A DNA stretch of 44,240 bases from Escherichia phage NTEC3, in sequence record NC_073318.1; one strand, given 5' to 3'. Both the position numbers and the translations under genes were made by a program. Positions 3,778 through 28,684 of this stretch are shown here, one piece after another; positions within the stretch are counted from its first letter, which is position 1, and each line of letters starts with the position of its first letter. The notes below the pieces were generated by a model, which did not search any database, was not told the origin of the DNA, and saw only the letters and a list, made by a program, of their open reading frames with translations.

Positions 3778-4096
3778 GTTTCCCCTTTCTCGATAAGTAA
3801 AGCCCCGCCATAAAGCGGGGCGCTAGTCCTTATCATTTAAACATAGAAACGGCGTAATCTCAGTAAACCAGTTACTTTTTACACAAGCAATAGGGTATGG
3901 CCCTTCCGAACGCGTCAGCGTAACTACACTCAGGACTTACGTCCCGCTCCGTTACCTGCCCGCGCCGCGGTCGCTTGTTCATACTTCACAAGCTCAGGTG
4001 GAGCTTATCATATTTTTAGTGAAAAGTCAACTATTCGAATAGTTTATTCCAACATTTACAATTCGGAGGAATAACTGGAATACGTAAATAAATAGT

Positions 4097-4125
4097 TTGC
4101 ACACCCCAATATAATAGGGTACTAT
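4097..4125 (+). promoter_or_regulatory. class A sigma70-like promoter, TTGCAC-N17-TACTAT, with AATAG-GGTA-CTATT palindrome
   Basis: -35 at 4097-4102, -10 at 4120-4125; 32-bp element identical to the copy at 38905. Confidence 0.55.
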
Positions 4126-4152
4126 TCAGTTAACTTAAACAGGAGGTGAAAA

Positions 4153-4356
4153 ATGTATGCAATTTGCGAAGTAGTTCAAGAGTTCGATGAAGAGTTCGAC
4201 GGTGACTTGTGCCGGGTTAAAAAGGTTCTGCAGGTTTTCCCTGACGCAATGTCTGCTTACAAGGCATTAGATATATTTGAACCTGGAAGATACGGGGATT
4301 ATGACACTGTTCTGAGGGTTGTCCATGAGCAGGATTTAAACACAAGATTCCGTTGA
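4153..4356 (+). CDS. moron-encoded small acidic protein, unknown function
   Basis: 67 aa; strong RBS AGGAGGT 7 nt before ATG; own promoter upstream and terminator downstream; opposite strand to flanking head genes. Confidence 0.6.
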   Translation: MYAICEVVQEFDEEFDGDLCRVKKVLQVFPDAMSAYKALDIFEPGRYGDYDTVLRVVHEQDLNTRFR

Positions 4357-4361: not shown

Positions 4362-4388
4362 AAGGCCCCATAATGGGGCCTTTTATCA
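4362..4388. terminator. bidirectional intrinsic terminator
   Basis: Hairpin GGCCCC-ATAAT-GGGGCC followed by TTTTAT; on the minus strand followed by TTAGTTTT. Confidence 0.6.
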
Positions 4389-5890: not shown

Positions 5891-5933
5891 AGATCAACCC
5901 TGTGGCGCTAAAGTTAATAGCATACTATAAGAA

Positions 5934-5949
5934 AGCCCCTTTCGGGGCT
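5934..5949 (-). terminator. hairpin / attenuator after portal gene
   Basis: AGCCCC-TTTC-GGGGCT stem-loop 10 nt past portal stop; T-rich on minus strand. Confidence 0.35.
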
Positions 5950-9440: not shown

Positions 9441-9659
9441 TCATATATGTTCCAGTGATTCTCTCCAGTCTGTATCTTGGTTCTCTACACACCCGAGGCA
9501 TTGTACTTCTCCATCCTCGCTCGACCATACCCATTCAAGACCCTCGATAATGGGTTCGTACTCGAAGCCGTACACAGCCCCGTCTTCATCCGTGGCAACA
9601 TAGTTTATATTATCCCACACATGAAAATGTTTACCTTTATATTCTATAGTACGACTCAT
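9441..9659 (-). CDS. hypothetical protein
   Basis: 72 aa ORF in minus-strand early block; no recognisable motif. Confidence 0.4.
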   Translation of the reverse strand: MSRTIEYKGKHFHVWDNINYVATDEDGAVYGFEYEPIIEGLEWVWSSEDGEVQCLGCVENQDTDWRESLEHI

Positions 9660-9916
9660 TCCCCGCTCTCCTCTTTAGCAATGCGTTGCTCTGTTTTAGT
9701 GATACCCCGGCGCGTGAATAACACCGGGCTAGTCTTAACGTGCGTCATCAGACGATTGTTATAAATTACGTGGCGCTCACAATCAACGTCTTTACTGTAC
9801 TTAGCAATCGTCATTTCGTTGATACCGGTTTGTCGGCATGTCTCCGCCATCGTACCAAATTCTTTAATCAGGTTAGGAATGCTGGTAATCATCCTAAGAA
9901 ATTCCTCGTTGTCCAC
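9656..9916 (-). CDS. hypothetical protein (possible HTH)
   Basis: 86 aa; start overlaps downstream gene (ATGA-type coupling); TCRQTGINEMTIAKY resembles an HTH turn. Confidence 0.4.
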   Translation of the reverse strand: MDNEEFLRMITSIPNLIKEFGTMAETCRQTGINEMTIAKYSKDVDCERHVIYNNRLMTHVKTSPVLFTRRGITKTEQRIAKEESGE

Positions 9917-11359: not shown

Positions 11360-11440
11360 CTTCTCTACTCCGTTCTCGTTGTCGATGGAGTAAATATAAT
11401 AGGGTCGTAGGTAATAGTCAACTAGTCATTGCAGAAAATA

Positions 11441-13390: not shown

Positions 13391-13646
13391 CTACTCTATC
13401 GTATGCATATTCGTCCGGTATTACGCCGTAACCCAGGTCGTTGTCCAGCTTAACTAACATATCGAGTATATCGTTGAGTTCGGCTTCGAGTTTCGCGTAG
13501 TCTTCGTAACTTACATAACGCCCTTCATGAGAGTCCGGAACAGGCGTTATATCTACCACGCCACTCGCGCAGTCTTCTGTTAAATCGTAGCGTATAACCA
13601 TCACTCCACCCCCTCCACATGTGTAACTGACCCGCAGTTCGCGCAC
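13350..13646 (-). CDS. tandem paralog family member C (acidic small protein)
   Basis: Likely true start MVIRYDL (internal); shares MVxRY N-terminus with the two upstream paralogs. Confidence 0.45.
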   Translation of the reverse strand: MRELRVSYTCGGGGVMVIRYDLTEDCASGVVDITPVPDSHEGRYVSYEDYAKLEAELNDILDMLVKLDNDLGYGVIPDEYAYDRVGEILEKYRNEPCN

Positions 13647-13690
13647 TCGACGTAATCAGGGTACTGGTCTTTGTATTTCTGTAGCTCGGC
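13601..13690. repeat. direct repeat copy 1 (about 90 bp) from tandem gene duplication
   Basis: About 90% identical to 13870-13959 (shared CACATGTGTAACTGACC...CAGTTCGCGCACTCGACGTAATC core). Confidence 0.7.
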
Positions 13691-13915
13691 GTTTACTTCT
13701 GCCAGTCTCGACACAAGCCCTTCTATTTCCTTGTCGGCGTCGGCTAGACGTTCCTGGTAATAGTCGTCCAGTTCCTTATAGCTGTCGTACTCTACATAAT
13801 CGCCGTATGCGTACTCAGCCATCTCAGGCTCTGGCAGGCCCCACGCTTTTACCTCATATCTCTGTACCATTACTCCACCCCTCCCACATGTGTAACTGAC
13901 CCACAGTTCGCGCAC
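13601..13915 (-). CDS. tandem paralog family member B (acidic, C-terminal CxxC)
   Basis: Likely start MVQRYEV; C-terminal ELQKYKDQYPDYVECANCGSVTHVEGVE nearly identical to paralog A. Confidence 0.5.
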   Translation of the reverse strand: MRELWVSYTCGRGGVMVQRYEVKAWGLPEPEMAEYAYGDYVEYDSYKELDDYYQERLADADKEIEGLVSRLAEVNAELQKYKDQYPDYVECANCGSVTHVEGVE

Positions 13916-13959
13916 TCGACGTAATCCGGGAACTGGTCCTTGTATTTCTGTAACTCGGC
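13870..13959. repeat. direct repeat copy 2
   Basis: Matches 13601-13690; encodes the conserved C-termini of paralogs A and B. Confidence 0.7.
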
Positions 13960-14145
13960 TTCAACTTCCAACAGCTTTAGGTCAAGATTCTGGTAGTCCT
14001 CAAACTTAACCCACTTCCCGTGGCGGTCAATGAAATGGTTGTCGGACCCATACTTAGAATATCTCTGTACCATGTTATTTCTCCTGTTTTCCAAGTCGCT
14101 TAGGTGAGCAGATAGCGCGTACCTCTGAATCGTTGGGCTTGTCAC
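13870..14145 (-). CDS. tandem paralog family member A (acidic, C-terminal CxxC)
   Basis: Contains MVQRY...ELQKYKDQFPDYVECANCGSVTHVGGVE. Confidence 0.5.
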   Translation of the reverse strand: MTSPTIQRYALSAHLSDLENRRNNMVQRYSKYGSDNHFIDRHGKWVKFEDYQNLDLKLLEVEAELQKYKDQFPDYVECANCGSVTHVGGVE

Positions 14146-15406: not shown

Positions 15407-15546
15407 TCACTCCGTTATAGACGCCGTTGTAATCTCCGTCGCAGATGAACGGGTAGAGCATATCTTCATACTCGTCCTGCAACTCGCCTAAAGTCACTTC
15501 GCTATAATCTTTCATCCTCTGTCTCTCCTCTCGTTTGTGTAAATGA

Positions 15547-15575
15547 ATAGTAGCCTATTCTATATTAGTGTGCAA
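15547..15575 (-). promoter_or_regulatory. class A promoter variant (internal early promoter)
   Basis: Reverse complement TTGCAC-N17-TACTAT, 26/32 match; upstream of a small minus-strand ORF starting near 15522. Confidence 0.4.
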
Positions 15576-15722
15576 GTAAATTTTATTGGTGTTTGTATTG
15601 TTGCGTCTCCTGCAATAGTCGCTTCGATTGTTGCGTTTGGTGAAATAGAACAAAAATGAGAAAAATGATACGCTGCTGTGTAGCAGCGTAAGTCACTCAG
15701 TAAAATCCCAAACTATTGAACA

Positions 15723-16516: not shown

Positions 16517-16713
16517 TTCGCCCCTTTGAATTTAAAATTGTTGCCGATGAGCTTCATTTCATACTCTTGGTAATACGCCGCGGAACTTAACCCGTGCTCC
16601 CTTAGTAAGCTAACGACATAAGAACTTCGATACACTGTCGATTTCTTTTCAATAATACCTAAGCTACCGTATATAGTTTTTACTAACTGACCCTTCTTAA
16701 ACATAACCACCAC
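16513..16713 (-). CDS. first early gene, hypothetical
   Basis: 66 aa; probable ATG at 16704 after AGGAG; about 25 nt downstream of predicted class A promoter. Confidence 0.45.
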   Translation of the reverse strand: MVVMFKKGQLVKTIYGSLGIIEKKSTVYRSSYVVSLLREHGLSSAAYYQEYEMKLIGNNFKFKGAK

Positions 16714-16738
16714 TCCTCTGTCTCGTTCCGATAAGTGA

Positions 16739-16767
16739 ATAGTATCCTATTATATTGGGGTGTGCAA
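16739..16767 (-). promoter_or_regulatory. class A promoter for minus-strand early block
   Basis: Reverse complement reads TTGCAC-N17-TACTAT (31/32 match to consensus); first early ORF about 25 nt downstream. Confidence 0.5.
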
Positions 16768-17016
16768 GAGGATAGTTACGTTGCCGTTGTGATTCTTCGG
16801 GGATGGTTGTGCCATTATTCTTATTACTTGGTAACTAAAGGGCAGGCCTTAAGCCTGCCCAATAATCGTTACATTTTTACGGTTGCGAATCTACGGCACT
16901 TTAAGAAAATCAGATACTTAAGAGATATGCTGTCGATGAGAATAGAGCTTGCCCAGGGCAACCGGAGATACTTAGGAAGGAAAGTTACAACAATTCTCGT
17001 GTTCAGTAAGCCTGCT

Positions 17017-17048
17017 GCTTAACCCTTTGCTTAACGCACGGGTTAAGC
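17017..17048. repeat. 9-bp inverted repeat in divergent control region
   Basis: GCTTAACCC ... GGGTTAAGC separated by 14 nt that re-contain GCTTAAC. Confidence 0.45.
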
Positions 17049-17138
17049 ATTCTTACAAGGTGAACAGGAATCAAAGTAACTAAGATATAGAAGCACCTTA
17101 AACGAAGATTTTCTTAATGTCAATAGGTGTGATTATGT

Positions 17139-17167
17139 TTGATTTCCCATTATTCGCAATGTATACT
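17139..17167 (+). promoter_or_regulatory. candidate sigma70 promoter for replication module
   Basis: TTGATT-N17-TATACT about 30 nt upstream of the HTH gene start at 17200. Confidence 0.35.
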
Positions 17168-17199
17168 TGGTTTCGTTAACTGATAATGAGGGCTTTGGA

Positions 17200-17370
17200 A
17201 TGACACAGAATGAAGTAGCTGAGCGTATCGGGGTTACCCGTCGTACGCTGAATAACTGGTTAAAGAGTGGGAAGTTCCCGGATTGTTGTATTCGCATTAT
17301 GGGCCGCAGGCAGCCTGGTACGTTTGACCCGGAGAAAGTGGAAGCGTGGATTAAGGAGAACGTGAAATGA
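17200..17370 (+). CDS. HTH DNA-binding protein (AlpA/excisionase-like)
   Basis: ORF track starts at TTG 17167; likely ATG 17200 (MTQNEVAERIGVTRRTLNNW) after GAGGG; classic HTH. Confidence 0.55.
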   Translation: MTQNEVAERIGVTRRTLNNWLKSGKFPDCCIRIMGRRQPGTFDPEKVEAWIKENVK

Positions 17371-17617: not shown

Positions 17618-19900
17618 GTGAACGCCGAGGCCAAATTACTTGCTGAAGGAATATACAACATGTCCGATGTAATTTTATCCTACTCGTGGTCCCGTCGCAA
17701 CGCGCGGGCAGAGAAAAAGGATATAAACGTCAGAACCACGCATGCGGCAACACTGGACGACCTGAAAGAGTTAATCCAGCCGCTCGATGCTGTTCGTGAC
17801 GGGATTAACCCTAAGACCGCGCCCGGCTATATCACAGCCGCGTGCGACTCTACGCACAGCACCGTAAAAGACCCGGAAACTGGGGACTTTAAGCAAGCAC
17901 GTAAAGGCTTCTTCTATCGCTGTGACGCGTCTGTAAGCAAATCGTCGCTCGCCTATCTGGACTTTGACAGTGCAACGCCGGAGGAGTATCAGGAAGCGGT
18001 GCGCCTGGTTAAGCGCAGCCGCCAGGCTATGTGCCTTTACACTACGGCATCCCATACTGATGAGGTCCCCCGCTTCCGCGTCGTCATGCCGCTAGGTCGC
18101 CCGGTCGAAGGTGGTGACATCATCCGCGTTCGTCATGGATTGCTGGAGCACTTCTTTAAAGGCATGGGCGCGGACCGCAGTGGTTTTACTCTGTCGCAGC
18201 CGATGTACCTGCCACCGGTCGGCTCTACCGTTATCTGGTCACGACGCAACGACCTGATTGACCCGGACGAGTTGCTGGAAGGTATCCCTGCCGTTGACGT
18301 TAGCAGCGCATCGGATTACCAGATACCTGAAGAACTGCGCACCGCGTTTACTGATGCGTTCGAGGCACTGGCGTTTGAGTACGGCGGCATCATGACGCCC
18401 CGCGGCCTTAAGATGCCAGCTACACCAGAACACGCAGAAAACTACAGCGACCCGACGCCTCGCCCGGACGACTTCCTGTTGTGTTTTCCGCGCGAGGGAT
18501 ATGAAGCGCCGAACGTAACCATGATTCACGACACCGACATTACGGCAACTGAAGGCATGTCTCCGAAAGAGGTGTGGAAGTATGCGTGCGACGCGACCGG
18601 GCTGCCGTTCAGTGAAGTGGCAGAGGCCATAGGTTGGGGTGCGCGTGAATCCGTTTCATGCAGCCTCGACGACCTGGAAGACGAGGATGACTCAGAGGAG
18701 TACGAGCTACCGGAACCTGTAAAGGCTGATTTCGTCGTAGAAGGGTATATGCCGTCGGATTGTATATGGGATATCGTCGGGGAGTCGGGCACATACAAAT
18801 CGTTCTATACTCTGGGGATGATGTACCTTAGCGCCGCCGGATACCGGTTCGCCGGGGCGGACACCCAGCGTTGCCATCACTTCTATATCGACGGTGAGGG
18901 GGGTGCTGCTACACGTACACGTATTGACGCACTCGCGGCTAAATACGGCGAGGAAGGTAAAGATTATGTACACGTCATCGATATGGGCGAAGTCGGCAAA
19001 CTGAAGAGCCTGATTAAGTTAATGCGCGAAACTGCCGGCGACGAGCCAATCGGCATGGTCGCGTTCGACACCCTAAACCAGACGCTGGCCCTGACGATTG
19101 ATAAGTTCGACGAGAACAGTTCATCAACGGCAATCGGCATGGGTAAAGTCATCGCCATCCTGAAAGAAGTGCGTGACGCGACTAAAGCCGCAGTAGGCGT
19201 TGTCCACCATACGCCGAAGGGTGGAAAGAAAGCACGCGGCAGTGGGGCGCTGTATGCGGGTGTTGACGTGGAACTGACAATCGAACGTGCAACCGACCGT
19301 CAAATAAACGTATACCACTCGAAATTTAAGCACGGTCCTCAACAGAAAACGGTTGGCATGGTGCTGGAGTCTGTGCAGTTCCGCGAAGCTCCGCCGCCGA
19401 AAGAGTACCGTGCGGTTGAGTTCCTGGGGGGCACAGAAGAATACGGCACAATCGTAAACCTGGACCTTCCTGAACCACACAAGGCGCTTGTGTTGATGCC
19501 GTGGGGTTTCGAGCCGTTCAAAACTGACGAGGAGAAAGAGCGGGAAGAAGGGTTGACGAAAGAAGGTAAGCAAAAAGTAAAGGAAGAAGTTAAACGCGGC
19601 AGGGATGAAGTAAGGAAGGAGTCAATACTTTCGGCACTGGAAGACCTGCAACAGTCAGATGACACAGGTCGCGGTTTTACTCAGCAGCAGATAGTGGCTC
19701 GTTCCGGTGACTTCTCTGTGACTAACACCCATCTTGATAAAATGTTGAAAGATGGAGAACTAATGCTTGGTTGCGATGCTAACGGCGAAGTAGTACCGAG
19801 AACATATCGTATACCCGAAAGAATAGGGGATAGATTAAGGCCGAAGACACTATACGAACCAAATGAGATGCTGGTGGTGACAGAGGAGGATTTGGAATAG
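17618..19900 (+). CDS. DNA primase / helicase (RepA/DnaB-like ATPase domain)
   Basis: 760 aa; Walker A-like GESGTYKS, Walker B MVAFDTLN, VVHHTPKGG block typical of RepA-like ATPases; C-terminal VTEEDLE. Confidence 0.7.
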   Translation: MNAEAKLLAEGIYNMSDVILSYSWSRRNARAEKKDINVRTTHAATLDDLKELIQPLDAVRDGINPKTAPGYITAACDSTHSTVKDPETGDFKQARKGFFYRCDASVSKSSLAYLDFDSATPEEYQEAVRLVKRSRQAMCLYTTASHTDEVPRFRVVMPLGRPVEGGDIIRVRHGLLEHFFKGMGADRSGFTLSQPMYLPPVGSTVIWSRRNDLIDPDELLEGIPAVDVSSASDYQIPEELRTAFTDAFEALAFEYGGIMTPRGLKMPATPEHAENYSDPTPRPDDFLLCFPREGYEAPNVTMIHDTDITATEGMSPKEVWKYACDATGLPFSEVAEAIGWGARESVSCSLDDLEDEDDSEEYELPEPVKADFVVEGYMPSDCIWDIVGESGTYKSFYTLGMMYLSAAGYRFAGADTQRCHHFYIDGEGGAATRTRIDALAAKYGEEGKDYVHVIDMGEVGKLKSLIKLMRETAGDEPIGMVAFDTLNQTLALTIDKFDENSSSTAIGMGKVIAILKEVRDATKAAVGVVHHTPKGGKKARGSGALYAGVDVELTIERATDRQINVYHSKFKHGPQQKTVGMVLESVQFREAPPPKEYRAVEFLGGTEEYGTIVNLDLPEPHKALVLMPWGFEPFKTDEEKEREEGLTKEGKQKVKEEVKRGRDEVRKESILSALEDLQQSDDTGRGFTQQQIVARSGDFSVTNTHLDKMLKDGELMLGCDANGEVVPRTYRIPERIGDRLRPKTLYEPNEMLVVTEEDLE

Positions 19901-19927
19901 GTAAAAAGAAAGGGGCTTTAAGCCCCT
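19900..19927 (-). terminator. terminator hairpin at 3' end of XRE gene
   Basis: AGGGGCT-TTA-AGCCCCT stem-loop; minus strand followed by TTCTTTTTAC. Confidence 0.45.
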
Positions 19928-20133
19928 TCACCTAACGCCAGCCACTTGGCGTCTACTTCCAGAACTTCCGCCAGTTTGAACAGCGTTGCCGGGCGGACGT
20001 CCTGAGTTACTCCAAGTGCCAGTTGGTTAATCGCGCCCTGGGAAACGCCGGTCAGGGCCGCCAAACGGCGCTGGGAGATGCCGAGTTCTTTGCGGCGTTG
20101 TTCTACACGGATGCCTAGTTCAGATGGTTGCAT
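19918..20133 (-). CDS. XRE-family (Cro/CI-type) HTH transcriptional regulator
   Basis: 71 aa; LGISQRRLAALTGVSQGAINQLALG is a canonical XRE HTH; RBS AAGGAG; divergent from plus-strand promoter. Confidence 0.75.
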   Translation of the reverse strand: MQPSELGIRVEQRRKELGISQRRLAALTGVSQGAINQLALGVTQDVRPATLFKLAEVLEVDAKWLALGEGA

Positions 20134-20154
20134 GTCAATTACTCCTTAGTCAGT

Positions 20155-20183
20155 TGATATGTGAATAGTACCATATTAATTAT
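20155..20183 (-). promoter_or_regulatory. candidate promoter for XRE repressor gene
   Basis: Minus-strand -10 TACTAT (plus coordinates 20155-20160) inside AATAGTACCATATT palindrome, 22 nt upstream of XRE start codon; -35 weak. Confidence 0.4.
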
Positions 20184-20197
20184 TTTAGAAAAGCCCA

Positions 20198-20226
20198 TTG
20201 ACATGTGAATAGTTCGCTATTATAGT
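20198..20226 (+). promoter_or_regulatory. class B sigma70 promoter, TTGACA-N17-TATAGT, operator in spacer
   Basis: -35 20198-20203, -10 20221-20226; spacer carries AATAGTTCGCTATT palindrome; drives gene at 20258. Confidence 0.6.
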
Positions 20227-20257
20227 TAGCCCATACCAAACGAGAGGAGAGAAACAA

Positions 20258-20758
20258 ATGTTAGAACAATTCTTAAAATTACTGGAACGTTTCGTAGTTG
20301 CACATGAACTGATTGCTGCGAACAGTGCGAAACAGTCAGCACAAGTTGCAGCGCCGTTAGAAGTAGAGACGGTAGTGTATACCAAAGAAGCGGTAGCTGA
20401 GTGCGAAAAAGAAGCAACAAAAGAAATCCCTGTTGAAGGTGAAGACATCGTTGACGCTAAACCAGCAGAAGAAGAGAAGCCGAAACGCAAGCCGCGTAAA
20501 GCTAAAGTAGAGGAGCCGACTCCAGAACCAGAAGAAGAGAAAGAAGAGGTCGATTACCAGTCTCTTCGTGACCAGATTCAGGCTATCGACGATGCGATTA
20601 ACGAAGGCCCAAGCGATGCCGCGTGCGACGATTCCGATGAACTGCTGGAGGAGTTCACCGGTAAGAAAATGAAGATTGCCGCGATTAAAGACGAAGACCT
20701 GGCTGAATACCTGAAACGCCTGACGGCAATCAAGAACAAGTATTTCGAAGAAGAATAA
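20258..20758 (+). CDS. acidic low-complexity protein, unknown function
   Basis: 166 aa, Glu/Lys-rich; RBS GAGAGGAGAG; 32 nt after class B promoter. Confidence 0.5.
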   Translation: MLEQFLKLLERFVVAHELIAANSAKQSAQVAAPLEVETVVYTKEAVAECEKEATKEIPVEGEDIVDAKPAEEEKPKRKPRKAKVEEPTPEPEEEKEEVDYQSLRDQIQAIDDAINEGPSDAACDDSDELLEEFTGKKMKIAAIKDEDLAEYLKRLTAIKNKYFEEE

Positions 20759-20801
20759 TTTATCTGGCGGCCTCCGGGCCGCTTTAACAGAGGGTCGTAA
20801 T

Positions 20802-21074
20802 ATGATTTACCAACTCTACCGAGGTATTGACCGACGGGATAACACAGAGGCGTTGTGGCTGTTGCGTGCGCCGTCCGGCGCGCACCAGATGGAAGAGATG
20901 GCCTACCTCGGCAAAGTACCGAAGCCGAAAGATATAGGCCGTCACCTGTCGCAGATTAAGCGCACGACATTCGTTAAAAGTGACTTTTATGTCTTCGAGT
21001 CGATGTATAGCTGGGCGATGCATTGTGACCACAAGACACGACATTTAATTGACCAGTGGGAGGTCAGGGTATGA
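20802..21074 (+). CDS. hypothetical protein
   Basis: 90 aa ORF with GAGGG RBS; overlaps next gene. Confidence 0.45.
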   Translation: MIYQLYRGIDRRDNTEALWLLRAPSGAHQMEEMAYLGKVPKPKDIGRHLSQIKRTTFVKSDFYVFESMYSWAMHCDHKTRHLIDQWEVRV

Positions 21075-22312
21075 TTTTAAAAGAACGCGGCGGCAATAAC
21101 GATGTGCACGCCCTGCTGTCGCCGTCAGGGGCTAAAAAGTGGCTAAGCTGCGCCGCATCGCTGGCCTGTGAGAAAGATATTCCCAACACGTCAGGTAAAG
21201 CCGCCGTTACAGGTACAGCGTGCCACACCATAGCGGAGGTCCATCTCAACGCCTATATCCGCGGAACTGCACTGCCGTTAGAGCGTGAAGTTGGCGCTTA
21301 CGTGCTGGACGAGGGTAAAGGCCAGATTAAGGCGCTAATCAGCCCGATGAAAGGTGCTGTACTGATTACGGCGGACATGATTGAGCAGGTGCGCAAGTAC
21401 ACCGACTACTGCAAAGCGATTATAGACGTAGCGACTTACGCCAAGCTGGAAATGCGTGTCAATCTTACTGAGGTATTGCATCCGGGGTATGAAGGCGTTG
21501 AGACGTTCGGAACCGCTGACCTCGTTGCTGTCCAGGAACTGGCAAACACCGACGAGCACATGCTCATTATCGGCGACATGAAAACCGGGCGGCATCGCGT
21601 CGAAGCGAAAGAAAACAAGCAGCTTATGCTTTACGCTCTCGGTGTTTATCGTCGACTCAAGAGACGTTATAACATAACAACCGTTCGTCTGGTCATCTTC
21701 CAGCCTTACGCTGGGGGCGCGACAGAGTGGGACATCTCGGTTGAAGGACTGGAACTGTTCGCTAAGTTCGCACAGAAACGCGCGCTGTTAGCGCTTGATG
21801 CGTATTTCCGTGGCAAGAAGAACCTGAAAGCGTCGGACTTCAAGCCATCGGTAGATGGTTGTCAGTGGTGCCGGTTCTCTGAACAATGCGCTGCGCGTAC
21901 AAAGACGGTTAATTCTGTACTGGCGGAAGAACTGGAAGACGACTTTGTGCTGGAACTGACGCCGGAGCAACTCGTAGCTGAGTATGAGAAGTTGCCGCTG
22001 TTGCGCCAGCACATCGACAAGGTTGAGAAAGCTATGGCGGCCGCGTTGCATTCAGGTAAGAAAGTTCCTGGTTACAAGTTGGTTGAAGGCCGCCCGGGTA
22101 ATCGTGCATGGAAAGACGCGGAGAAAGTAACAGAACTCTACGGCGACAAGCTGACTAAAGAAGTGCTCATGTCACCTACCGAAGCTGTTAAAGTCATACC
22201 GGAAGAAGAACTGAAAGACTTCATTACCCGTAAGCCAGGCGCACCATGTGTCGCAACGGCAGACGACAAACGTCCTGAGTGGAATCAGGTAACAGAGGAG
22301 GATTTGGAATGA
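21071..22312 (+). CDS. DUF2800-like PD-(D/E)xK (Cas4/RecB-like) nuclease
   Basis: ADLVAV ... IGDMKTG nuclease-like motifs and C-terminal Cys cluster CQWCRFSEQC; likely start ATG 21071 after GGGAGG; C-terminal VTEEDLE. Confidence 0.65.
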   Translation: MILKERGGNNDVHALLSPSGAKKWLSCAASLACEKDIPNTSGKAAVTGTACHTIAEVHLNAYIRGTALPLEREVGAYVLDEGKGQIKALISPMKGAVLITADMIEQVRKYTDYCKAIIDVATYAKLEMRVNLTEVLHPGYEGVETFGTADLVAVQELANTDEHMLIIGDMKTGRHRVEAKENKQLMLYALGVYRRLKRRYNITTVRLVIFQPYAGGATEWDISVEGLELFAKFAQKRALLALDAYFRGKKNLKASDFKPSVDGCQWCRFSEQCAARTKTVNSVLAEELEDDFVLELTPEQLVAEYEKLPLLRQHIDKVEKAMAAALHSGKKVPGYKLVEGRPGNRAWKDAEKVTELYGDKLTKEVLMSPTEAVKVIPEEELKDFITRKPGAPCVATADDKRPEWNQVTEEDLE

Positions 22313-22512
22313 TTCAAGTAAATGAAATGCCCACAGATAAAGATTTTGTGATGATATGGCGCTGGGGCGGTTATATCCATTCGGAATCGTTTACGTTCCT
22401 GAACGGCACGATGGTGCGATACAACCATGTGGAGGATGAATTCGAACCCGTTGATATGAATGATTTCGAGAACATAGTCCGTATTGCGAAATTTTATTTG
22501 ACACCTGAATAG
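22309..22512 (+). CDS. hypothetical protein
   Basis: Likely start ATG 22309 (MIQVNEM) after GAGGAGG; 67 aa. Confidence 0.45.
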   Translation: MIQVNEMPTDKDFVMIWRWGGYIHSESFTFLNGTMVRYNHVEDEFEPVDMNDFENIVRIAKFYLTPE

Positions 22513-22526
22513 TTAGCTATTATAGT
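22498..22526 (+). promoter_or_regulatory. class B promoter upstream of DUF2815-like gene
   Basis: TTGACA 22498-22503, 17 nt spacer with AATAGTTAGCTAT, TATAGT 22521-22526. Confidence 0.55.
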
Positions 22527-22585
22527 TCTAATCACTGACCGGGCAGCTTCCCGGAGTAAACGAAACTTAAAAGCGAGAAATTAAG

Positions 22586-23212
22586 ATGGGTATTAAACTG
22601 AATCTGCGTAAAGTAAACACTGCTTGGGTTAACGTATTTGAACGTGAAAAAGACCGTGAAAACGATGATGGCTCAATCACTAAAGGCCAGTACAGCGCGA
22701 CTATCATCCTGCCGTCTGACCATGCTCAAATCGATGCACTCTACGACACCGTTTACGCTGTAGTTGAAGAAGCGTTAGGCGCAGCCGCTGCCGAGAAATG
22801 GATGAAGTCCAACTACGGTGAAGGTAAGCACATGGATAAATGCGCGATTAAAGACATTGCCGAGCGCGACAATCCGTTTGAAGACTTCCCGGAAGGCTTC
22901 TACTTCAAAGCGAAGGCACAGAAACAGCCGCTGATTGTAACCTCTAAAAAAGGTGAGACTCAGGTAGAGCAGGACTTCAACGTAGACGGCGAACAGATTG
23001 AAGGTGAACAGGTTTACAGCGGATGCTTAGCTAACGTAAGCGTTGAAATCTGGTTCAGCCAGAAATACAAAGTCCTCGGCGTTAACCTGCTGGCGATTAA
23101 ATACGTTGGCGAAGGCAAAGCGTTCGGCGGTTCTAAAGTCGCTGCGAGCGTCAATGACCTGGAAGACGACGAAGAAGATGAAGCACCGCGCCGCGAACGT
23201 CGCCGCCGCTAA
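22586..23212 (+). CDS. DUF2815-like protein (ssDNA-binding candidate)
   Basis: 208 aa; sits between DUF2800-like nuclease and DNA polymerase as in the known DUF2800-DUF2815-PolA phage module; acidic/basic C-terminus. Confidence 0.55.
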   Translation: MGIKLNLRKVNTAWVNVFEREKDRENDDGSITKGQYSATIILPSDHAQIDALYDTVYAVVEEALGAAAAEKWMKSNYGEGKHMDKCAIKDIAERDNPFEDFPEGFYFKAKAQKQPLIVTSKKGETQVEQDFNVDGEQIEGEQVYSGCLANVSVEIWFSQKYKVLGVNLLAIKYVGEGKAFGGSKVAASVNDLEDDEEDEAPRRERRRR

Positions 23213-23231
23213 TATCTGAATCAATTTAACT

Positions 23232-23256
23232 AAGGCCCTTCATTGGGCCTTTTTAC
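23232..23256 (+). terminator. terminator / attenuator between DUF2815-like gene and DNA polymerase
   Basis: AAGGCCC-TTCATT-GGGCCTT hairpin followed by TTTTT, 16 nt before polymerase ATG. Confidence 0.45.
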
Positions 23257-23271
23257 TAGGGGTCAAAAATA

Positions 23272-25452
23272 ATGAGTTACCTGTTCTTAGACTTTGAAAC
23301 ATTCTCAGAAGCCGATTTGAAGAAAGTCGGTTCTTACGCTTACGCCGAACACCCGTCAACCGAAGTGCTTATCTGTACATATGCTTTTGACGACGAACCT
23401 GTGCGGGTATGGGATTGCACCGACGGCAGCGACATGCCGGGGGATTTACACCGCGCACTGCGCCGCCTTGTTAAGCCCAACAGCCGCATCAAGATGGTGT
23501 GGCACAACGGTGGACTTTTCGACCGCCTAATCATGAAACACTGCTGGGACTTTGATATTCCGGTAAGTAACACCATTGATACTATGATTTGGGCGTTCCG
23601 TCACGCGCTGCCGGGTTCTCTTGATGCGCTGTGCGAAGTGCTGGGCGTGTCTGCAGACAACGCGAAAGATAAACGCGGCAAGGCTCTGATTAAGCGTTTT
23701 TCTAAACCTACGCCGAAGAACTACAAAATCCGCCGCTACACCGCCGATACGCACCCGGACGAGTGGGCGCTGTTCATCAAGTACGCCGTTAGCGACATCA
23801 CTGCGATGCGTGAAGTCTTCCATAAGCTGCCGCGTTGGGGTAACTCCGAGTTCGAAGACCGTGTACTGGAACTGGACCAGTTGATTAACGACCGTGGGTT
23901 TAAGGTTGATGTGACGCTGGCGGAAGCCGCGATTGAAGCCGTGGAAAAACACAAGGCCAAGCTACAGGAAGAAGCACAGCGCAAATACGGCGGCTCGCTT
24001 ACTGGTAAAGACTTCCTGCCGATTCTGCGTGAACTGGCCCCCGCACACCGCATACACAACGCACAGAAGTCGACGCTGAATGACCTGCTGGCCGATGATG
24101 ATTTACCTGACGACGCCCGCACGATTATCGAAATGCGCCTCGGGGCCGCGTCAACAGCGTCCACGAAATATAACCCGCTGCTGTTAGGCCGCTCGTCGGA
24201 CGACCGACGCCGCGGTTGTATCCAGTACGGTGGGGCAAAGCGTACGTTACGGTTCGCGGGTAAAGGCTTCCAGCCACAGAACCTGGCGCGCGGGTACTAT
24301 CACGATGATGAACTGGATAAAGGTATTTCAGCGTTACTTAAGGGCCGCGCGCATCGCCGTTTCGATGTCGCTAAGCTAACGGCATCGACGGTGCGTAGCT
24401 GCATTATCCCGGAAGCCGGAAAAAAGTTTGTCGTCGCCGATTACTCTAACGTTGAAGGTCGGGGGCTTGCGTGGCTGGCAGGCGAAGAAACCGCGCTAGA
24501 TACGTTCCGCGCCGGGCTGGACATTTACTGTGTAACCGCGGGTAAGATGTTCGGCATGGAGCCGGATTACATTAAGAAGGAACGCAAAGACTTGCGCCAG
24601 ATTGGTAAAGCCTGCGAGCTTGGCCTCGGCTACGCTGGTGGTGTTGGCGCTTTCGTTCAGTTTGCTAAGAACCTCGGACTTGACCTTGTTGATATGTCAA
24701 AAACAATGGACGGTACTTTCCCGGACCACATCTGGGCGGCTACTGCACGCGGCTATGAATGGGCACGTATTCAGGAAGCCAAGCGACCGCCGCGACCCGG
24801 GGAGAAGGATGACCGACCATCGTATATTCTTGATAAGAAAGTGTGGCGTACCTGTGACGCTATCAAGCGTATGTGGCGAGAGTCACACCCTGAAACAGTA
24901 GCTTTCTGGCGAGATATTGAAGACGCAGCTATGGCCGCTATCCGCAATCCAGGTAAAGAGTTCACCGCGGGGCCTAGGGGGGTTAAGTTTTCGCGCAACG
25001 TAGAGACAGACAACAACGGCAACAAAGTCGCCGGCTGGTGGTTGCGCATGACGTTGCCGTCGGGTCGCGTTATGTCTTATCCGGGCGTCGGGTTAAGCGT
25101 GTCGAAAGAAACAGACGAAGATGGAAAAGTGTCTACTAACGTACGCATCAAGTACCAGGGGGAGAACCAGTTAACCCGTCAGTGGGGCTTCCAGTACACC
25201 TACTCTGGTAAACTCGTGGAAAACTGTACTCAGGCGCTGTGCCGTGATTTGCTGGCCAATGCACTGCTGAACGTTGAAGCAAACGGCTATCCTATTGTGC
25301 TTCACGTACACGACGAAATTATCTGCGAAACACCAGATACGCCAGAATACAATGTTGCAGAGCTTGAGCGGTTGATGTGCGAATTACCGGAGTGGGCGGA
25401 GGGGTTCCCTCTTGTAGCGGAAGGTGCGGAGATGAAGCGATATGCCAAGTAA
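23272..25452 (+). CDS. family A DNA polymerase with 3'-5' exonuclease domain
   Basis: 726 aa; N-terminal DFETFS exonuclease motif; C-terminal VHDEIICE polymerase motif C. Confidence 0.85.
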   Translation: MSYLFLDFETFSEADLKKVGSYAYAEHPSTEVLICTYAFDDEPVRVWDCTDGSDMPGDLHRALRRLVKPNSRIKMVWHNGGLFDRLIMKHCWDFDIPVSNTIDTMIWAFRHALPGSLDALCEVLGVSADNAKDKRGKALIKRFSKPTPKNYKIRRYTADTHPDEWALFIKYAVSDITAMREVFHKLPRWGNSEFEDRVLELDQLINDRGFKVDVTLAEAAIEAVEKHKAKLQEEAQRKYGGSLTGKDFLPILRELAPAHRIHNAQKSTLNDLLADDDLPDDARTIIEMRLGAASTASTKYNPLLLGRSSDDRRRGCIQYGGAKRTLRFAGKGFQPQNLARGYYHDDELDKGISALLKGRAHRRFDVAKLTASTVRSCIIPEAGKKFVVADYSNVEGRGLAWLAGEETALDTFRAGLDIYCVTAGKMFGMEPDYIKKERKDLRQIGKACELGLGYAGGVGAFVQFAKNLGLDLVDMSKTMDGTFPDHIWAATARGYEWARIQEAKRPPRPGEKDDRPSYILDKKVWRTCDAIKRMWRESHPETVAFWRDIEDAAMAAIRNPGKEFTAGPRGVKFSRNVETDNNGNKVAGWWLRMTLPSGRVMSYPGVGLSVSKETDEDGKVSTNVRIKYQGENQLTRQWGFQYTYSGKLVENCTQALCRDLLANALLNVEANGYPIVLHVHDEIICETPDTPEYNVAELERLMCELPEWAEGFPLVAEGAEMKRYAK

Positions 25453-25573
25453 ACTGATTATTGCGGTACTGGCGGGATTTGCCGCCGGTGTCTACTGTCA
25501 CGAGGGACAATACGGCATGATGGTTGCCATATTGGGCATGTTCATCGCAATTTATATGTGGGTGCTGGAATGA
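25442..25573 (+). CDS. micro-ORF, single-pass membrane peptide (43 aa)
   Basis: Hand-found; ATG overlaps polymerase stop; hydrophobic core IIAVLAGFAAGV / MMVAILGMFIAIYMWVL. Confidence 0.35.
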   Translation: MPSKLIIAVLAGFAAGVYCHEGQYGMMVAILGMFIAIYMWVLE

Positions 25574-25659
25574 AAATTTACTGGTTTTATGAAGAAGACT
25601 GCCGAATCTGCCCGCGCTGCGGGATTGAGCATACGAAACGTGAGGGGTGCGTATTATGA
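25570..25659 (+). CDS. micro-ORF, Cys-rich zinc-ribbon-like peptide (29 aa)
   Basis: ATGA overlap with previous ORF; CRICPRCG ... C pattern. Confidence 0.3.
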   Translation: MKIYWFYEEDCRICPRCGIEHTKREGCVL

Positions 25660-25809
25660 CAATGTTTGTATTTAGGACCATAGTAACCATGCTCGCACTG
25701 TTACTCGGTGCGGGAATAGCTGCTATGTTCTGTTACGGCCTGTTCTTTCAGTTTGCCGGTGTTGCCATTCTAGGCTGGGTTTTCCTTACCTGGATGCTGC
25801 GGTCATGAC
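25656..25809 (+). CDS. micro-ORF, membrane peptide (50 aa)
   Basis: ATGA overlap both sides; two hydrophobic stretches. Confidence 0.35.
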
Positions 25810-26089
25810 TAAAGAGGGACGCATCCAGAAATACGCAAAAGAGCGATTCGAGGCCATTGGTGGCCTCGTTCGTAAGCTGTCTTATGAGGGGCGCTCCGGC
25901 GCCCCCGACCTGCTGGTAATTCTCCCCGGCGGCATCGTCTGGTTCGTCGAGGTTAAGAAAGACGAAAACACGAAGCCAGACCCGCACCAGATACGAGAGC
26001 ACGAGCGGATGCGTAAACGCGGTGCAAATGTTTTTGTCGTCGGTTCGTTTAAACAGGTTGACGACCTAATAGCGAACTATTATAGTTAG
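25805..26089 (+). CDS. VRR-NUC domain nuclease
   Basis: 94 aa; GAPDLLVI ... VEVKK fits the PD-(D/E)xK VRR-NUC signature. Confidence 0.65.
   Translation: MTKEGRIQKYAKERFEAIGGLVRKLSYEGRSGAPDLLVILPGGIVWFVEVKKDENTKPDPHQIREHERMRKRGANVFVVGSFKQVDDLIANYYS
26058..26086 (+). promoter_or_regulatory. class B promoter upstream of 63 aa / methyltransferase / SNF2 genes
   Basis: TTGACG 26058-26063, spacer with AATAGCGAACTAT, TATAGT 26081-26086; overlaps 3' end of VRR-NUC gene. Confidence 0.55.
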
Positions 26090-26119
26090 TCCTACACCAA
26101 CAATATAAGGAATTGAGAA

Positions 26120-26311
26120 ATGAAACACGAATATGACCGAAAACCTGCACGTGACATCGTACCAGGCGACATGATTTTCAACGTTAAGACCCGTCGTCCT
26201 GTTGCCGTTGATACAGTGTTCGTCGAGTCGAACGGTAAACTGGTTATCGAAGATGTAACCGGCAATATTACGGCGTTCGGGCGTAAAGAGTTAGTTCTGG
26301 TGGCAAAATGA
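26120..26311 (+). CDS. hypothetical small protein, coupled to methyltransferase
   Basis: 63 aa; RBS AAGGAA; stop overlaps methyltransferase start (ATGA). Confidence 0.45.
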   Translation: MKHEYDRKPARDIVPGDMIFNVKTRRPVAVDTVFVESNGKLVIEDVTGNITAFGRKELVLVAK

Positions 26312-27102
26312 ACTATTACAACGAATGGGATAAAGGCGCAGCCGCGTGGCTGCGTGAATTAATAAAACAGGGTCACATACCTTTTGGAGTTGTAGATGAA
26401 AGAAGCATTACCGAAGTTAGACCAGAAGACCTTGACGGGTTCACCCAGTGTCATTTTTTCGCGGGTATTGGCGGCTGGCCTCTCGCGCTCAGACTTGCGG
26501 GAGTTTCTGAAGATACGCCTATATGGACGGGAAGTCCGCCTTGCCAACCGTTTAGCACGGCAGGAAAGCAACTCGGACAGTTCGACCAGAGACACCTCGC
26601 ACCTGTGCTCCTCGACCTCATCAGCGAGTGCCACCCTCCAGTCATCTTTGGGGAGCAGGTTGCGGCAGCAATTGCAAAATCGTGGATGTGCGATTTACAA
26701 ACTCACCTGGAAAGAGAAGACTACGCCGTCGGGTTTGCCGTACTCCCAGCTTGTAGCGTCGGCGCACCGCACAAAAGGAATCGATTGTTCTTCGGAGCGC
26801 AGCAACTGGCCAACACCGTGTGCGAACAACTCGGCGGGAGCAGGCCATCAGGGCAGGAACGGGGGCCACAATCTGCAAACAGAGGCATCTCTGACACAGC
26901 CAATCCGCCTAACGGGTTCTGGTCAGATGCTGACTGGCTCGGATGCCGGGATGGAAAATTCAGGCCAGTTGAACCCAGCACATTCCCGCTGGCTAATGGG
27001 GTACCCGCCAGAGTGGGACGATTGCGCGGTTACGGCAATGCTATCGTCCCGCAAGTAGCCGCTGAATTTATAAAGGCGTTCATGGGGGCCGTAAATGAGT
27101 AA
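26308..27102 (+). CDS. DNA (cytosine-5)-methyltransferase, compact form
   Basis: Motif I FAGIGG, motif IV PCQPFS (catalytic Cys), ENV-like GEQV, motif VIII-like HKRNRLFF, motif X GNAIVP; only 264 aa. Confidence 0.7.
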
Positions 27103-28519
27103 GTTTCAAAGGCGCGAATACCAGAAGCTAATGACTTCGTTCATGTTGCGGCACCATCGCTGTAATATTTGGGCGAGCATGGGCGCCGGGAAGACTGGCA
27201 GCGTACTGTGGACATTAAACCGACTGTTCCGCAACGGGCAGCTTACAGAAGAGGACCGCGTGTTAATCCTCGCCCCGTTGCGCGTTGCGTCCGGCACATG
27301 GCCGGCGGAACAAACTAAGTGGAATTTCCCATGTCTGCGTGTCGTAGACGCGACCGGTTCAGAGAAGCGCCGCATCGCGGCGCTGGAGTCAGATGCTAAC
27401 GTGGTGTGCACGAACTACGAAGTTATCGAGTGGCTTATTGACTACTACGGCAAAGACGACTGGCCTTTTACCGTTATCGTTGCCGATGAAAGCACGAAAC
27501 TGAAGTCATTCCGCAGCCGTTCAGGCGGCAGCAAGAGGGCAAAGGCGCTTAGTAAAGTGGCATTTGGCAAAGTTAAGCGTTTCATTAACCTGACTGGCAC
27601 GCCGTCACCAAACGGCCTCAAGGACTTGTGGGGGCAGAACTGGTTTATCGACGCAGGCGAGCGCCTGGGGTCATCGTACACAGCATTCACCGACCGCTGG
27701 TTTAACTCGGTACAGAAAGGGAAATCTGCGATGGCCCGTGAATACCACGCACGCCCGGGTGCGGATAATGAAATTCACCAGAAGATGAAGGACATTAGTC
27801 TCACGATTGACGCCGCCGAGTGGTTCGGGTGTGAAGCGCCGATTATTGTGCCGGTTGAAATCGACCTGCCGAAGAAAGCACGTCAGGCGTACATCGATAT
27901 GGAGGAGAAGTTATTCGCGGAACTGGAAAGCGGAGAAGTTGAAGCGGCTAACGCTGCGGCGAAGACGTCGAAGTGCCTACAGATTGCCTCCGGTGCCGTG
28001 TATGTATCGGGGCCAGATGGCGAATCAACCAAAGAATGGGAGAAAGTGCACGACACGAAACTTGATGCGCTGGAGTCAATTGTGGAGGAGTTGCAGGGCG
28101 CGCCGTTGCTGGTCGCCTATCAGTTCAAGCACGAACTTGAGCGCATCCTTAAGCGATTCCCACAGGCGCAGGCGTTTTCCAAAGGCGCGAAGGGTAATAA
28201 GCAGATGGAAGCGTGGAACCGCGGCGAAATAGAAATCTTATGCGTACACCCTGCGTCAGCCGGGCATGGTTTGAATTTACAGGACGGCGGCCATCATCTG
28301 GCGTTTATTTCACAAGGCTGGAATCTTGAGCACTATTTGCAGGTTGTCGAGCGCATCGGCCCTGTTCGCCAGAAACAAGCTGGGCACGAGCGCCCGGTGT
28401 TCCTTTATCACATAGTCGCTAAAGACACGCTGGACGAGGTTGTTGCCGCGCGTACCGACGAGAAGAAATCGGTACAGGAAGAGTTGCTTAACTACATGAA
28501 GAGACGAGGTAAGAAATGA
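27095..28519 (+). CDS. SNF2-family helicase / ATPase
   Basis: Walker A ASMGAGKTG, DExx box VADEST, LTGTPSPN motif III. Confidence 0.75.
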   Translation: MSKFQRREYQKLMTSFMLRHHRCNIWASMGAGKTGSVLWTLNRLFRNGQLTEEDRVLILAPLRVASGTWPAEQTKWNFPCLRVVDATGSEKRRIAALESDANVVCTNYEVIEWLIDYYGKDDWPFTVIVADESTKLKSFRSRSGGSKRAKALSKVAFGKVKRFINLTGTPSPNGLKDLWGQNWFIDAGERLGSSYTAFTDRWFNSVQKGKSAMAREYHARPGADNEIHQKMKDISLTIDAAEWFGCEAPIIVPVEIDLPKKARQAYIDMEEKLFAELESGEVEAANAAAKTSKCLQIASGAVYVSGPDGESTKEWEKVHDTKLDALESIVEELQGAPLLVAYQFKHELERILKRFPQAQAFSKGAKGNKQMEAWNRGEIEILCVHPASAGHGLNLQDGGHHLAFISQGWNLEHYLQVVERIGPVRQKQAGHERPVFLYHIVAKDTLDEVVAARTDEKKSVQEELLNYMKRRGKK

Positions 28520-28653
28520 ACATCATAGCCCCGATTCCAGCATTGCAAAAACGTATCAAGGAACTCGAAGAGGAGGTTCTACGCCTACGGCAACAGAGAG
28601 ATGCCGCTAATGCGCAACTGGCGTTTGTGCTGGAGAAGTTATCAGAAGAGTAG
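28516..28653 (+). CDS. small coiled-coil peptide (45 aa)
   Basis: Hand-found; ATGA overlap with SNF2 stop; followed by terminator. Confidence 0.3.
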   Translation: MNIIAPIPALQKRIKELEEEVLRLRQQRDAANAQLAFVLEKLSEE

Positions 28654-28654
28654 A

Positions 28655-28684
28655 GAAAAGGCCCCGTTTGGGGCCTTAGTTTTA
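28655..28684. terminator. bidirectional terminator between replication module and tailspike gene
   Basis: AAGGCCCC-GTTT-GGGGCCTT hairpin; T-runs on both strands. Confidence 0.6.

Follow-up and report, generated by a model that had tools for sequence, protein, structure and literature searches.

Why would a phage carry the same 32-bp promoter-like sequence at distant places in its genome, each time with the -10 hexamer buried in a palindrome? The question is raised by a minus-strand site at 16736-16767 in Escherichia phage NTEC3 (NC_073318.1; the window that we analysed is the whole stretch of 44,240 nucleotides). An initial annotation described a promoter element in four copies and suggested that a dimeric DNA-binding protein could occlude its -10. 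We propose that the element is probably a sigma-70-type promoter fused to an operator, and that a phage-encoded dimeric helix-turn-helix (HTH) repressor occludes it.

The window belongs to the Kagunavirus group (Guernseyvirinae) and is nearly identical to Escherichia phage vB_EcoS_SCS92 (ON548432.1). The two sequences are collinear, with equal length (44,240 bp) and coordinates, and they differ by 1,461 substitutions and 0 indels. Because the substitutions are patchy and mostly synonymous, we take them to be natural divergence, and we used the 72 annotated coding sequences (CDS) of vB_EcoS_SCS92 as the gene map of the window. For comparison, we used about 100 IMG/VR loci from kagunaviruses and jerseyviruses, along with the complete genomes of the Salmonella phages Jersey and SE1. 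This is a virulent phage, with neither an integrase nor a CI-type two-domain repressor.

A search of the window found the 32-mer TTGCACACCCCAATATAATAGGGTACTATTCA exactly at 4097-4128 and 38905-38936 on the plus strand, as the initial annotation had reported, and with one mismatch at 16736-16767 on the minus strand. (This copy had been described correctly, except that it was ended one base too far, at 16768.) In 100 dinucleotide shuffles there were no matches, as compared to these three in the window. The fourth copy, TTGCACACTAATATAGAATAGGCTACTATTCA, does match at 26 of 32 positions as claimed, but it lies at 15544-15575 on the minus strand, 2 nt from where it had been placed (15546-15577). 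All four copies have the expected TTGCAC and TACTAT hexamers, 17 nt apart. A start codon had been predicted within 20-35 nt of each copy, with a ribosome binding site, and indeed a Shine-Dalgarno sequence and ATG follow at 24, 25, 31, and 28 nt (starts at 4153, 38962, 16704, and 15515). The same arrangement is found downstream of the element in 36 cassettes of related phages. We call these elements class A:

4097-4128, plus strand: predicted class A promoter-operator A1, with -35 TTGCAC at 4097-4102 and -10 TACTAT at 4120-4125.
4113-4126, plus strand: A1 operator, AATAGGGTACTATT; A1 is predicted to drive the 67-aa cassette gene at 4153-4356.
38905-38936, plus strand: predicted class A promoter-operator A2, with -35 at 38905-38910, -10 at 38928-38933, and operator at 38921-38934; the predicted target is the plus-strand island at 38962-41195, within the tail-gene cluster.
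16736-16767, minus strand: predicted class A promoter-operator A3, with -35 at 16762-16767, -10 at 16739-16744, and operator at 16738-16751; the predicted targets are five small genes, from 16704 down to 15723.
15544-15575, minus strand: predicted class A promoter-operator A4 (the 26/32 variant), with -35 at 15570-15575, -10 at 15547-15552, and operator at 15546-15559; the predicted targets are the gene at 15515 and the minus-strand genes beyond it.

Class A elements match the sigma-70 consensus at 7 of 12 positions (3/6 for TTGCAC and 4/6 for TACTAT), which is below the threshold of our consensus scan, so the scan did not list them. In all four copies, the second base of the -10 is A and the sixth is T. 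We also noticed a perfect TATAAT inside the element, 10 bp upstream of the proposed -10. The A2 base of this TATAAT is invariant in 96 variants (as seen in sequence logos), and there is no -35 at a usable distance from it. It may be a second or alternative -10. Another observation concerns promoter A2, which may also fire leftward, towards the tail operon: in relatives, its reverse strand reads GTTACA-17-TATATT.

The initial annotation had noted the palindrome AATAG-N4-CTATT over the -10 of class A. Scanning the window for this palindrome with up to one mismatch, as had been recommended, gave 11 sites, while 0.97 were expected and the shuffled sequences had 4 at most. In an unbiased enumeration of palindromes with 5-nt arms and centers of 0-10 nt, AATAG-N4-CTATT came out at the top for the window, where 7 sites are exact, and again for Salmonella phage Jersey, where 4 are. 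So the count of four copies is right for class A only; as a total it is too low, as there are 11 operator sites in at least three architectures. Of these sites, nine fall between genes, and two overlap the final codons of the gene upstream. The sites outside class A, with the predicted promoters that they accompany, are:

20198-20226, plus strand: class B promoter B1, TTGACA-17-TATAGT (11/12 matches to consensus), with an operator at 20208-20221 in its spacer; predicted to drive 20258 onward.
22498-22526, plus strand: class B promoter B2, TTGACA-17-TATAGT (11/12), with an operator at 22508-22521 in its spacer; the predicted target is the operon of the ssDNA-binding protein and DNA polymerase.
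26058-26086, plus strand: class B promoter B3, TTGACG-17-TATAGT (10/12), with an operator at 26068-26081; predicted to drive 26120-28653.
20164-20177, minus strand: imperfect operator AATATGGTACTATT, covering the promoter that we predict for the XRE gene (described below).
20165-20173, minus strand: TGGTACTAT, which reads as the extended -10 of the putative XRE promoter.
11421-11393, minus strand: predicted class C promoter, TTGACT-17-TATATT (10/12), with an orthologue in Jersey.
11413-11426, minus strand: near-palindrome ACTAGTTGACTATT, with the class C -35 inside it.
4002-4044, minus strand: weaker class C-like site upstream of the spanin/capsid operon, with AATAGTTGACTTTT at 4035-4022, -35 TTGACT at 4030-4025, and candidate -10 TAAGCT at 4007-4002.
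4029-4044: perfect 16-bp everted palindrome AACTATTCGAATAGTT, at the class C-like site.
5916-5929, no strand assigned: orphan near-operator AATAGCATACTATA, which abuts a terminator at 5934-5949.

Class B promoters have the layout TTGACA-N4-AATAGnnnnCTAT-TATAGT and lie ahead of replication operons. B1, B2, and B3 are the three best sigma-70 matches within 19801-39800 in the consensus scan. The imperfect operator at 20164-20177 is 44 bp from the B1 operator (center to center) and is invariant, imperfect half-site included, in 36 relatives. A good candidate for the promoter of the helicase-primase operon, at 17139-17167, has no operator palindrome. Still, most of the recognizable promoters of this Kagunavirus appear to carry the AATAG-N4-CTATT operator.

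The palindrome has no fixed position with respect to the hexamers: in class A (centered at about -12.5) it overlaps the -10, in class B (about -18.5) the spacer and the first base of the -10, and in class C (about -33.5) the -35. Counting Jersey's TTGCAT-17-TATTAT, there are at least four registers. A single palindrome in several registers, all of them inside the footprint of RNA polymerase, fits an occluding repressor, but neither an activator with a fixed geometry nor a recognition element for a polymerase. To our knowledge, no consensus of an E. coli transcription factor fits this palindrome. (The OxyR site is ATAG-N7-CTAT, which has a different spacing.)

The promoter reading fits the pattern of conservation in the relatives. 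Among 44 unique class A elements, TTGC is kept, and its position is kept while the sequence of the spacer varies: the spacer is 17 nt in 42 of them and 18 nt in the other two. The central N4 is NNTA in 43 of the 44. In contrast, 48 unique class B elements have 18 different values of N4, with fixed half-sites and a linker of 4 or 5 nt to the -35. Because N4 is free in class B and is NNTA in class A, it seems to be the -10, not the palindrome, that needs the TA. We consider this to be the best available evidence that TACTAT is a working -10 and that class A promoters read on the strand that was originally assigned to them. The operator idea from the initial annotation likewise fits the fixed half-sites with a variable center, the several registers, and the top rank of the palindrome in Jersey.

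The palindrome persists between genera, although protein identity between them is only about 50-90%. In Jersey's GenBank record (NC_021777), the orthologous palindrome elements are annotated as sigma-70 promoters, and in the SE1 lineage, a variant motif, AATAC-N4-CTAAT, is found at promoters. When we scanned the sequence collection for TTGC-N12-AATAGNNTACTATT, the matches listed were from kagunaviruses, plus one conserved site in phages similar to epsilon15 and phiV10. Within the few kb of DNA flanking the latter site, in the matches listed, we found no XRE homologue; this site is possibly coincidental.

What are these promoters attached to? Class A promoters stand at the head of promoter-gene-terminator units, which some phages have and their relatives lack. 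In the window, the A1 unit comprises the promoter at 4097-4128, the gene at 4153-4356, and a terminator (both signals are predicted). Its neighbors are the spanin gene on one side and the fibritin-like gene on the other, both of which are on the other strand. Terminators of one family close A1 and A2:

4362-4382, plus strand: predicted terminator AAGGCCCC-loop-GGGGCCTT, which closes the A1 cassette and is the conserved right-hand boundary of the slot.
41200-41219, plus strand: predicted terminator of the same family, which closes the A2 island.

In relatives, class A promoters are followed by cassette genes in two slots, the spanin/fibritin-like one and a second one near 5916. The 36 genes that come first belong to 17 unrelated families, and an N6/N4 DNA methylase is one of them. 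Homology between the genomes breaks directly after TACTATTCA and returns at the conserved terminator, AACTAAGGCCCC-loop-GGGGCCTTTTA. Filled slots are 159-769 nt long. In 13 loci, the slot is empty, with neither promoter nor gene, and GGAATAACTGGAATA runs straight into the terminator. At the 5916 site, relatives have either the orphan sequence or a class A promoter and a gene, never both; by this comparison, the site in the window is the empty state of the second cassette slot. Class A units thus appear to be moron-like, in that they are gained, lost, and swapped between related phages.

The initial annotation had argued that conservation well beyond the two hexamers suggests a dedicated regulator. 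This argument needs to be corrected: the identity outside of the hexamers and the palindrome, ACCCCAATAT, is not general, as it varies in A4 and in the relatives. It seems better explained by common descent or by the exchange of promoter-gene-terminator cassettes. In other words, A1, A2, and A3 are probably alike beyond what function needs because they head moron-like units. We also asked whether terminal or other long repeats could have given rise to the identical copies, and rejected this idea: the copies have only 32-36 bp in common and their flanks are unrelated. Similarly, we rejected an RNA element. No Rfam families were found anywhere in the window, and transcription is predicted to start downstream of the palindrome, which is therefore not expected to be transcribed.

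Which protein might bind the operator? There are two main candidates:

19918-20133, minus strand: XRE/HTH_3 protein of 71 aa, the stronger candidate for a repressor that would bind the operator.
17200-17370, plus strand: HTH_17 (excisionase-like) protein of 56 aa, the alternative candidate.

The XRE protein matches HTH_3 in Pfam (E = 4e-13). Its best sequence matches in the PDB are 434 Cro, which also has 71 aa, and the DNA-binding domain of the 434 repressor (E about 1e-5). We also modeled it with AlphaFold from the single sequence (pLDDT 81), and this model matches HipB, C.BclI, 434 Cro, SinR, and P22 c2, all of which are palindrome-binding dimers. Furthermore, the XRE gene adjoins the operators at 20164 and 20208. 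Among 30 small open reading frames that we compared to Pfam, the only hits to DNA-binding proteins were XRE, HTH_17, and a sub-threshold NinH-like match (9656-9892).

Comparisons across genera cut both ways, whether we consider the phylogenetic profile or the recognition helices. The XRE proteins of Kagunavirus and of Jersey (a Jerseyvirus) are 49% identical, and their recognition helices (SQGAINQ and SQSLITH) differ at most of the specificity positions of 434 Cro, although both genera have one and the same operator. For HTH_17, the identity between these genera is 88%. The assignment to XRE is weakened because its recognition helix differs under the same operator while HTH_17 is so similar. 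On the other hand, HTH_17 is absent from the SE1 lineage (best tblastn E = 0.35), which keeps an XRE homologue (recognition helix TQSAISH) together with its variant motif. In another locus (L039), the helix is SQGNISD, and ATATC-N9-GATAT lies upstream of its XRE gene. Across Kagunavirus, Jersey, SE1, and L039, co-variation between the helix and the operator is not clean. Given its sequence, its structural model, and its location, we rank XRE first as the binder of the operator, but this choice is tentative.

In the mechanism that we propose, the host's RNA polymerase would read the 32-bp element by its -35 (TTGCAC) and its -10 (TACTAT), 17 nt apart. Since the -10 is embedded in the 14-bp operator, a phage-encoded dimeric HTH protein that binds AATAG-N4-CTATT would block RNA polymerase. 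The best candidate for this protein is the 434-Cro-like XRE, encoded beside two operators. As XRE accumulates, early and middle transcription would be turned down, and the conserved but weaker site at XRE's own promoter would lead to negative autoregulation. Class A promoters would be the heads of small accessory units, inserted so that they run opposite to the late genes. Because the operator is found on class C (putative late) promoters as well as on early promoters, the regulator would not be a simple device for shutting off early genes.

We considered several other explanations. The palindrome might be the core of a bidirectional promoter, with no dedicated binder: opposed -10s, TACTAT forward and TATATT in reverse, would produce the symmetry, and class A would fire both ways and would serve the divergent late operons too. 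The reverse complement of class A, TGAATAGTAyCCTAT-TATATT, does have the class B layout minus the -35, and A1, A2, and A3 are all in divergent intergenic regions. The reverse strand of A2 in relatives matches the consensus at 9 of 12 positions, and the tail operon, which begins at 38797, has no other minus-strand promoter with at least 9/12 matches in our scan. In Jersey, the orthologous palindrome, with a class A-like geometry, points towards the tail genes. However, the left half-site of class B, AATAG, lies in the spacer and is not part of a hexamer on either strand, yet it is conserved like the hexamers are while N4 varies. Also, the palindrome of class C covers a -35, the reverse "-35" at A1 differs with each cassette, and the reverse TATATT decays to TATGTT in many A3 orthologues and is absent at A4, where neither a usable reverse -10 nor a gene is found on that side. 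So we consider this explanation to be unlikely. At A2, a bidirectional reading could hold in addition to the operator, not instead of it. It also seems quite unlikely that the 32-bp identity and the palindrome are kept as a boundary for the exchange of cassettes, or are a recent copy, instead of being a regulator's site. A1 and A2 are identical at 32 of 32 positions within unrelated flanks; homology breaks after TACTATTCA and returns at the terminator, around empty slots or around first genes of 17 unrelated families; and the orphan site at 5916 and a filled second slot are mutually exclusive. Exchange can account for the identity in ACCCCAATAT but not for fixed half-sites around a variable center. 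Moreover, the palindrome is also conserved at places that do not bound a cassette, namely at the class B and class C promoters that serve core replication and late operons, and it persists between genera with N4 free to vary.

If the palindrome is an operator, then it might be read by another protein, such as HTH_17 or a small protein that we did not recognize, or XRE might act as both an activator and a repressor, as the controller (C) proteins of restriction-modification systems do. We doubt both variants and give them a low probability. The similarity of HTH_17 across Kagunavirus and Jerseyvirus, which have the same operator, favors it over XRE with its diverged recognition helix. But the SE1 lineage has operator-like motifs at its promoters without HTH_17, excisionase-type proteins such as HTH_17 are not typical readers of 14-bp palindromes, and no further HTH was found among the 30 small proteins that we scanned. 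As for a dual role for XRE, C.BclI, C.AhdI, and C.Esp1396I are among the structural neighbors of the XRE model, and the -35s of class A and of the XRE promoter are weak or absent, so an activator could help. This seems inconsistent with the operator's centers, near -12.5, -18.5, and -33.5, which all overlap the region that RNA polymerase contacts; judged by geometry, such positions do not allow activation of the classical class I or class II type. The remaining alternative has been published: PHIRE independently found the motif in a related Kagunavirus, fBC-Eco01, in seven copies with the consensus tgAATAGTa-ccTATTat-T, which were assigned to a phage RNA polymerase (PMC9825357). PHIRE also predicted 7 promoters in phage Golestan (PMC7203180). 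However, none of the 72 annotated CDS is an RNA polymerase gene (apart from the helicase-primase, the DNA polymerase, and tail proteins, no protein exceeds 700 aa), and on this ground we reject promoters for a phage RNA polymerase. Phage-specific promoters of any kind, including those for a re-targeted host polymerase, seem very unlikely to us: the motif is palindromic, so it has no intrinsic direction, and near-consensus sigma-70 hexamers flank it in several registers and in varying orientation to the genes.

A repressed sigma-70 promoter, which is the explanation that we prefer, has a familiar counterpart in the Cro and repressor proteins of phage 434 (and of lambda and P22). 434 operators are 14 bp, with conserved outer half-sites and a variable center, as is the palindrome that we describe. 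As in phage 434, the operators overlap promoter hexamers; the regulator gene lies beside a divergent pair of promoters with two operators; and XRE is a small single-domain HTH_3 protein with the same length as 434 Cro. Unlike phage 434, this phage is virulent, with no integrase and no CI-type two-domain repressor. Instead of 434's two control regions with three tandem sites, single operators are scattered over at least 8-11 promoters and their register varies. Also, binding by XRE is putative, and its recognition helix does not clearly co-vary with the operator between genera.

The cassettes resemble morons. In the concept of Juhala and Hendrix, morons are promoter-gene-terminator units between the late genes of lambdoid phages, and classically they are expressed from the prophage. 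The A1 unit is likewise a promoter, a gene, and a terminator between late genes, and its presence and content vary among relatives. But in a virulent phage there is no expression from a prophage, and these units share one standard promoter-operator that ties them to the phage's circuit, so they are not autonomous. Another parallel is the PeSL (promoter-early stem-loop) elements of T4-type phages, which Arbiol and colleagues reportedly described in 2010 as mobile regulatory cassettes. There too, a conserved early-promoter module flanks hypervariable small open reading frames and marks breaks in homology. In our case, instead of one repeat on both sides, the promoter-operator bounds the unit on the left and a distinct terminator bounds it on the right, and a role in recombination is putative.

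The motif itself is already in print: the PHIRE promoters of fBC-Eco01 and the sigma-70 features in Jersey's record (NC_021777) have the same motif (TTGACACCTTAATAGTTAACTATTATAGT) at orthologous places. These sources describe a promoter only, without the palindrome as an operator, the several registers, or the link to cassettes. In the literature that we searched, we did not find a paper that proposes the operator reading. Nor did we find, in the searchable literature, any data on transcription starts, expression, or binding for Guernseyvirinae, for which there are in-silico lists of promoters only.

Overall, the core of the initial interpretation stands. The element is real and statistically solid, and it is best seen as one architecture of a promoter-operator system that extends across the subfamily and is attached to swappable cassettes. 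Our analysis shows how the element is built, its enrichment, how it is conserved, and the polymorphism of the cassettes, and from these we infer promoter activity, repression, and the binding protein. As phage regulation, the module is fairly ordinary and its novelty is modest: a Cro-type operator on sigma-70 promoters, plus morons. A bolder proposal, which we consider unlikely, is that a virulent siphophage has wired nearly its whole transcription program to one 14-bp operator that is read by a single Cro-like protein, with the same module serving as a "plug" for cassettes. If so, the operator would cover the early accessory cassettes, the replication operons, and at least some of the late operons. 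A captured gene, such as a DNA methylase, would come at once under the control of the phage's timing and would be silenced late. The late silencing would also avoid collisions between transcription of the cassette gene and late transcription in the opposite direction.

Guernseyvirinae (Kagunavirus and Jerseyvirus) are among the most often isolated phages of E. coli and Salmonella, and they are widely proposed for therapy and biocontrol, but their gene regulation is essentially unstudied. One operator on most promoters, with a Cro-like candidate repressor, would be a simple circuit that can be tested directly, and the operator reading would correct the published assignment of the motif to a phage RNA polymerase. 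As the heads of cassettes, class A promoters may point to the likely locations of genes for anti-defence or host takeover. And for phage engineering, the class A slot would be a natural place for inserting genes, with a regulated promoter already present.

One leader motif, (A)AACGAGAGGAG(A), recurs around the first gene's Shine-Dalgarno sequence downstream of promoters of different classes, that is, with the putative operator AATAG-N4-CTATT over the -10 (class A), in the spacer (class B), or over the -35 (class C). It is present in these 5' leaders:

after the predicted promoter at 16736, class A
after the predicted promoter at 15544, class A (A4)
after the predicted promoter at 20226 (end), class B
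after the predicted promoter at 11393, class C
near 39930 in Salmonella phage Jersey (L041)

The operator half-sites also occur in everted order (CTATT-CG-AATAG), directly upstream of the class C -35 in the predicted promoter for the spanin/capsid operon:

4029-4044, perfect 16-bp palindrome AACTATTCGAATAGTT

This palindrome is kept in about 36 relatives. Several kagunaviruses (among relatives L002-L038) have an extra exact palindrome, AATAGGTTACTATT, which is absent from the window. It lies at the 3' end of the gene before the A4 promoter, upstream of a terminator that is orthologous to 15669-15690 of the window.

An unrelated viral contig (L039) encodes a distant homologue of XRE, the leading candidate for binding the operator, with 33–38% identity (depending on the alignment). 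Ahead of this gene are three ATATC-N9-GATAT palindromes, 15 bp apart (L039:6177-6230); this is a different putative operator for a different recognition helix. The temperate podophages related to epsilon15 and phiV10 have one conserved class A-like element, TTGCAGACTGTGGGTGAATAGCGTACTATT, at these loci:

L137:6007-6036, and about 28 similar loci among the matches listed
L220 (phiv142-3, Uetakevirus), about 1788-1817

The element directly follows the anti-repressor gene, and the sequence after the element is variable. We did not find an XRE homologue within the few kb flanking it. The resemblance may be fortuitous, or the element may be an unrelated moron promoter.

Within the window, the divergent early operons are separated by about 495 bp (16705-17199), which includes:

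17139-17167, promoter candidate TTGATT-17-TATACT, without an operator

A strong terminator on the minus strand (16860-16840) lies within the annotated ORF of this region (16807-17022, plus strand), and no counterpart of that ORF is annotated in phage Jersey; 16807-17022 may therefore be non-coding (an origin or regulatory region). Four other terminators, AAGGCCC(C)-loop-(G)GGGCCTT, are nearly identical:

4362-4382
23232-23251
28658-28677
41200-41219

These are located where converging transcription units meet, and T-rich tails flank them on both strands; therefore, they are probably bidirectional.

The annotation of Escherichia phage vB_EcoS_SCS92 (L001, ON548432.1), which we used as the gene map, lacks the first two of the following three ORFs, and the first lies in a 1.1-kb gap:

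1446-2495, minus strand, 349 amino acids
13601-13915, minus strand, first of a paralogous pair
13870-14145, minus strand, the adjacent paralog

The 349-amino-acid ORF has the scaffold gene on one side and a small capsid-associated gene on the other, and given its position relative to phage Jersey, its product is probably the major capsid protein. The paralogy of the two neighboring small genes explains a direct repeat of 103 nt (13597-13699 and 13866-13968, 89% identical). Their products share a C-terminal tail, ...AELQKYKDQ(Y/F)PDYVECANCGSVTHV.GVE.

The window and SCS92 have the same length and coordinates, with 1,461 substitutions and no indels (1-44240 compared). Codon changes are mostly synonymous (1,041, versus 232 non-synonymous). 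The substitutions cluster in blocks (such as 7–8 kb, 17–28 kb, 30–33 kb, and 41–43 kb), forming a mosaic of differences between two very closely related phages.
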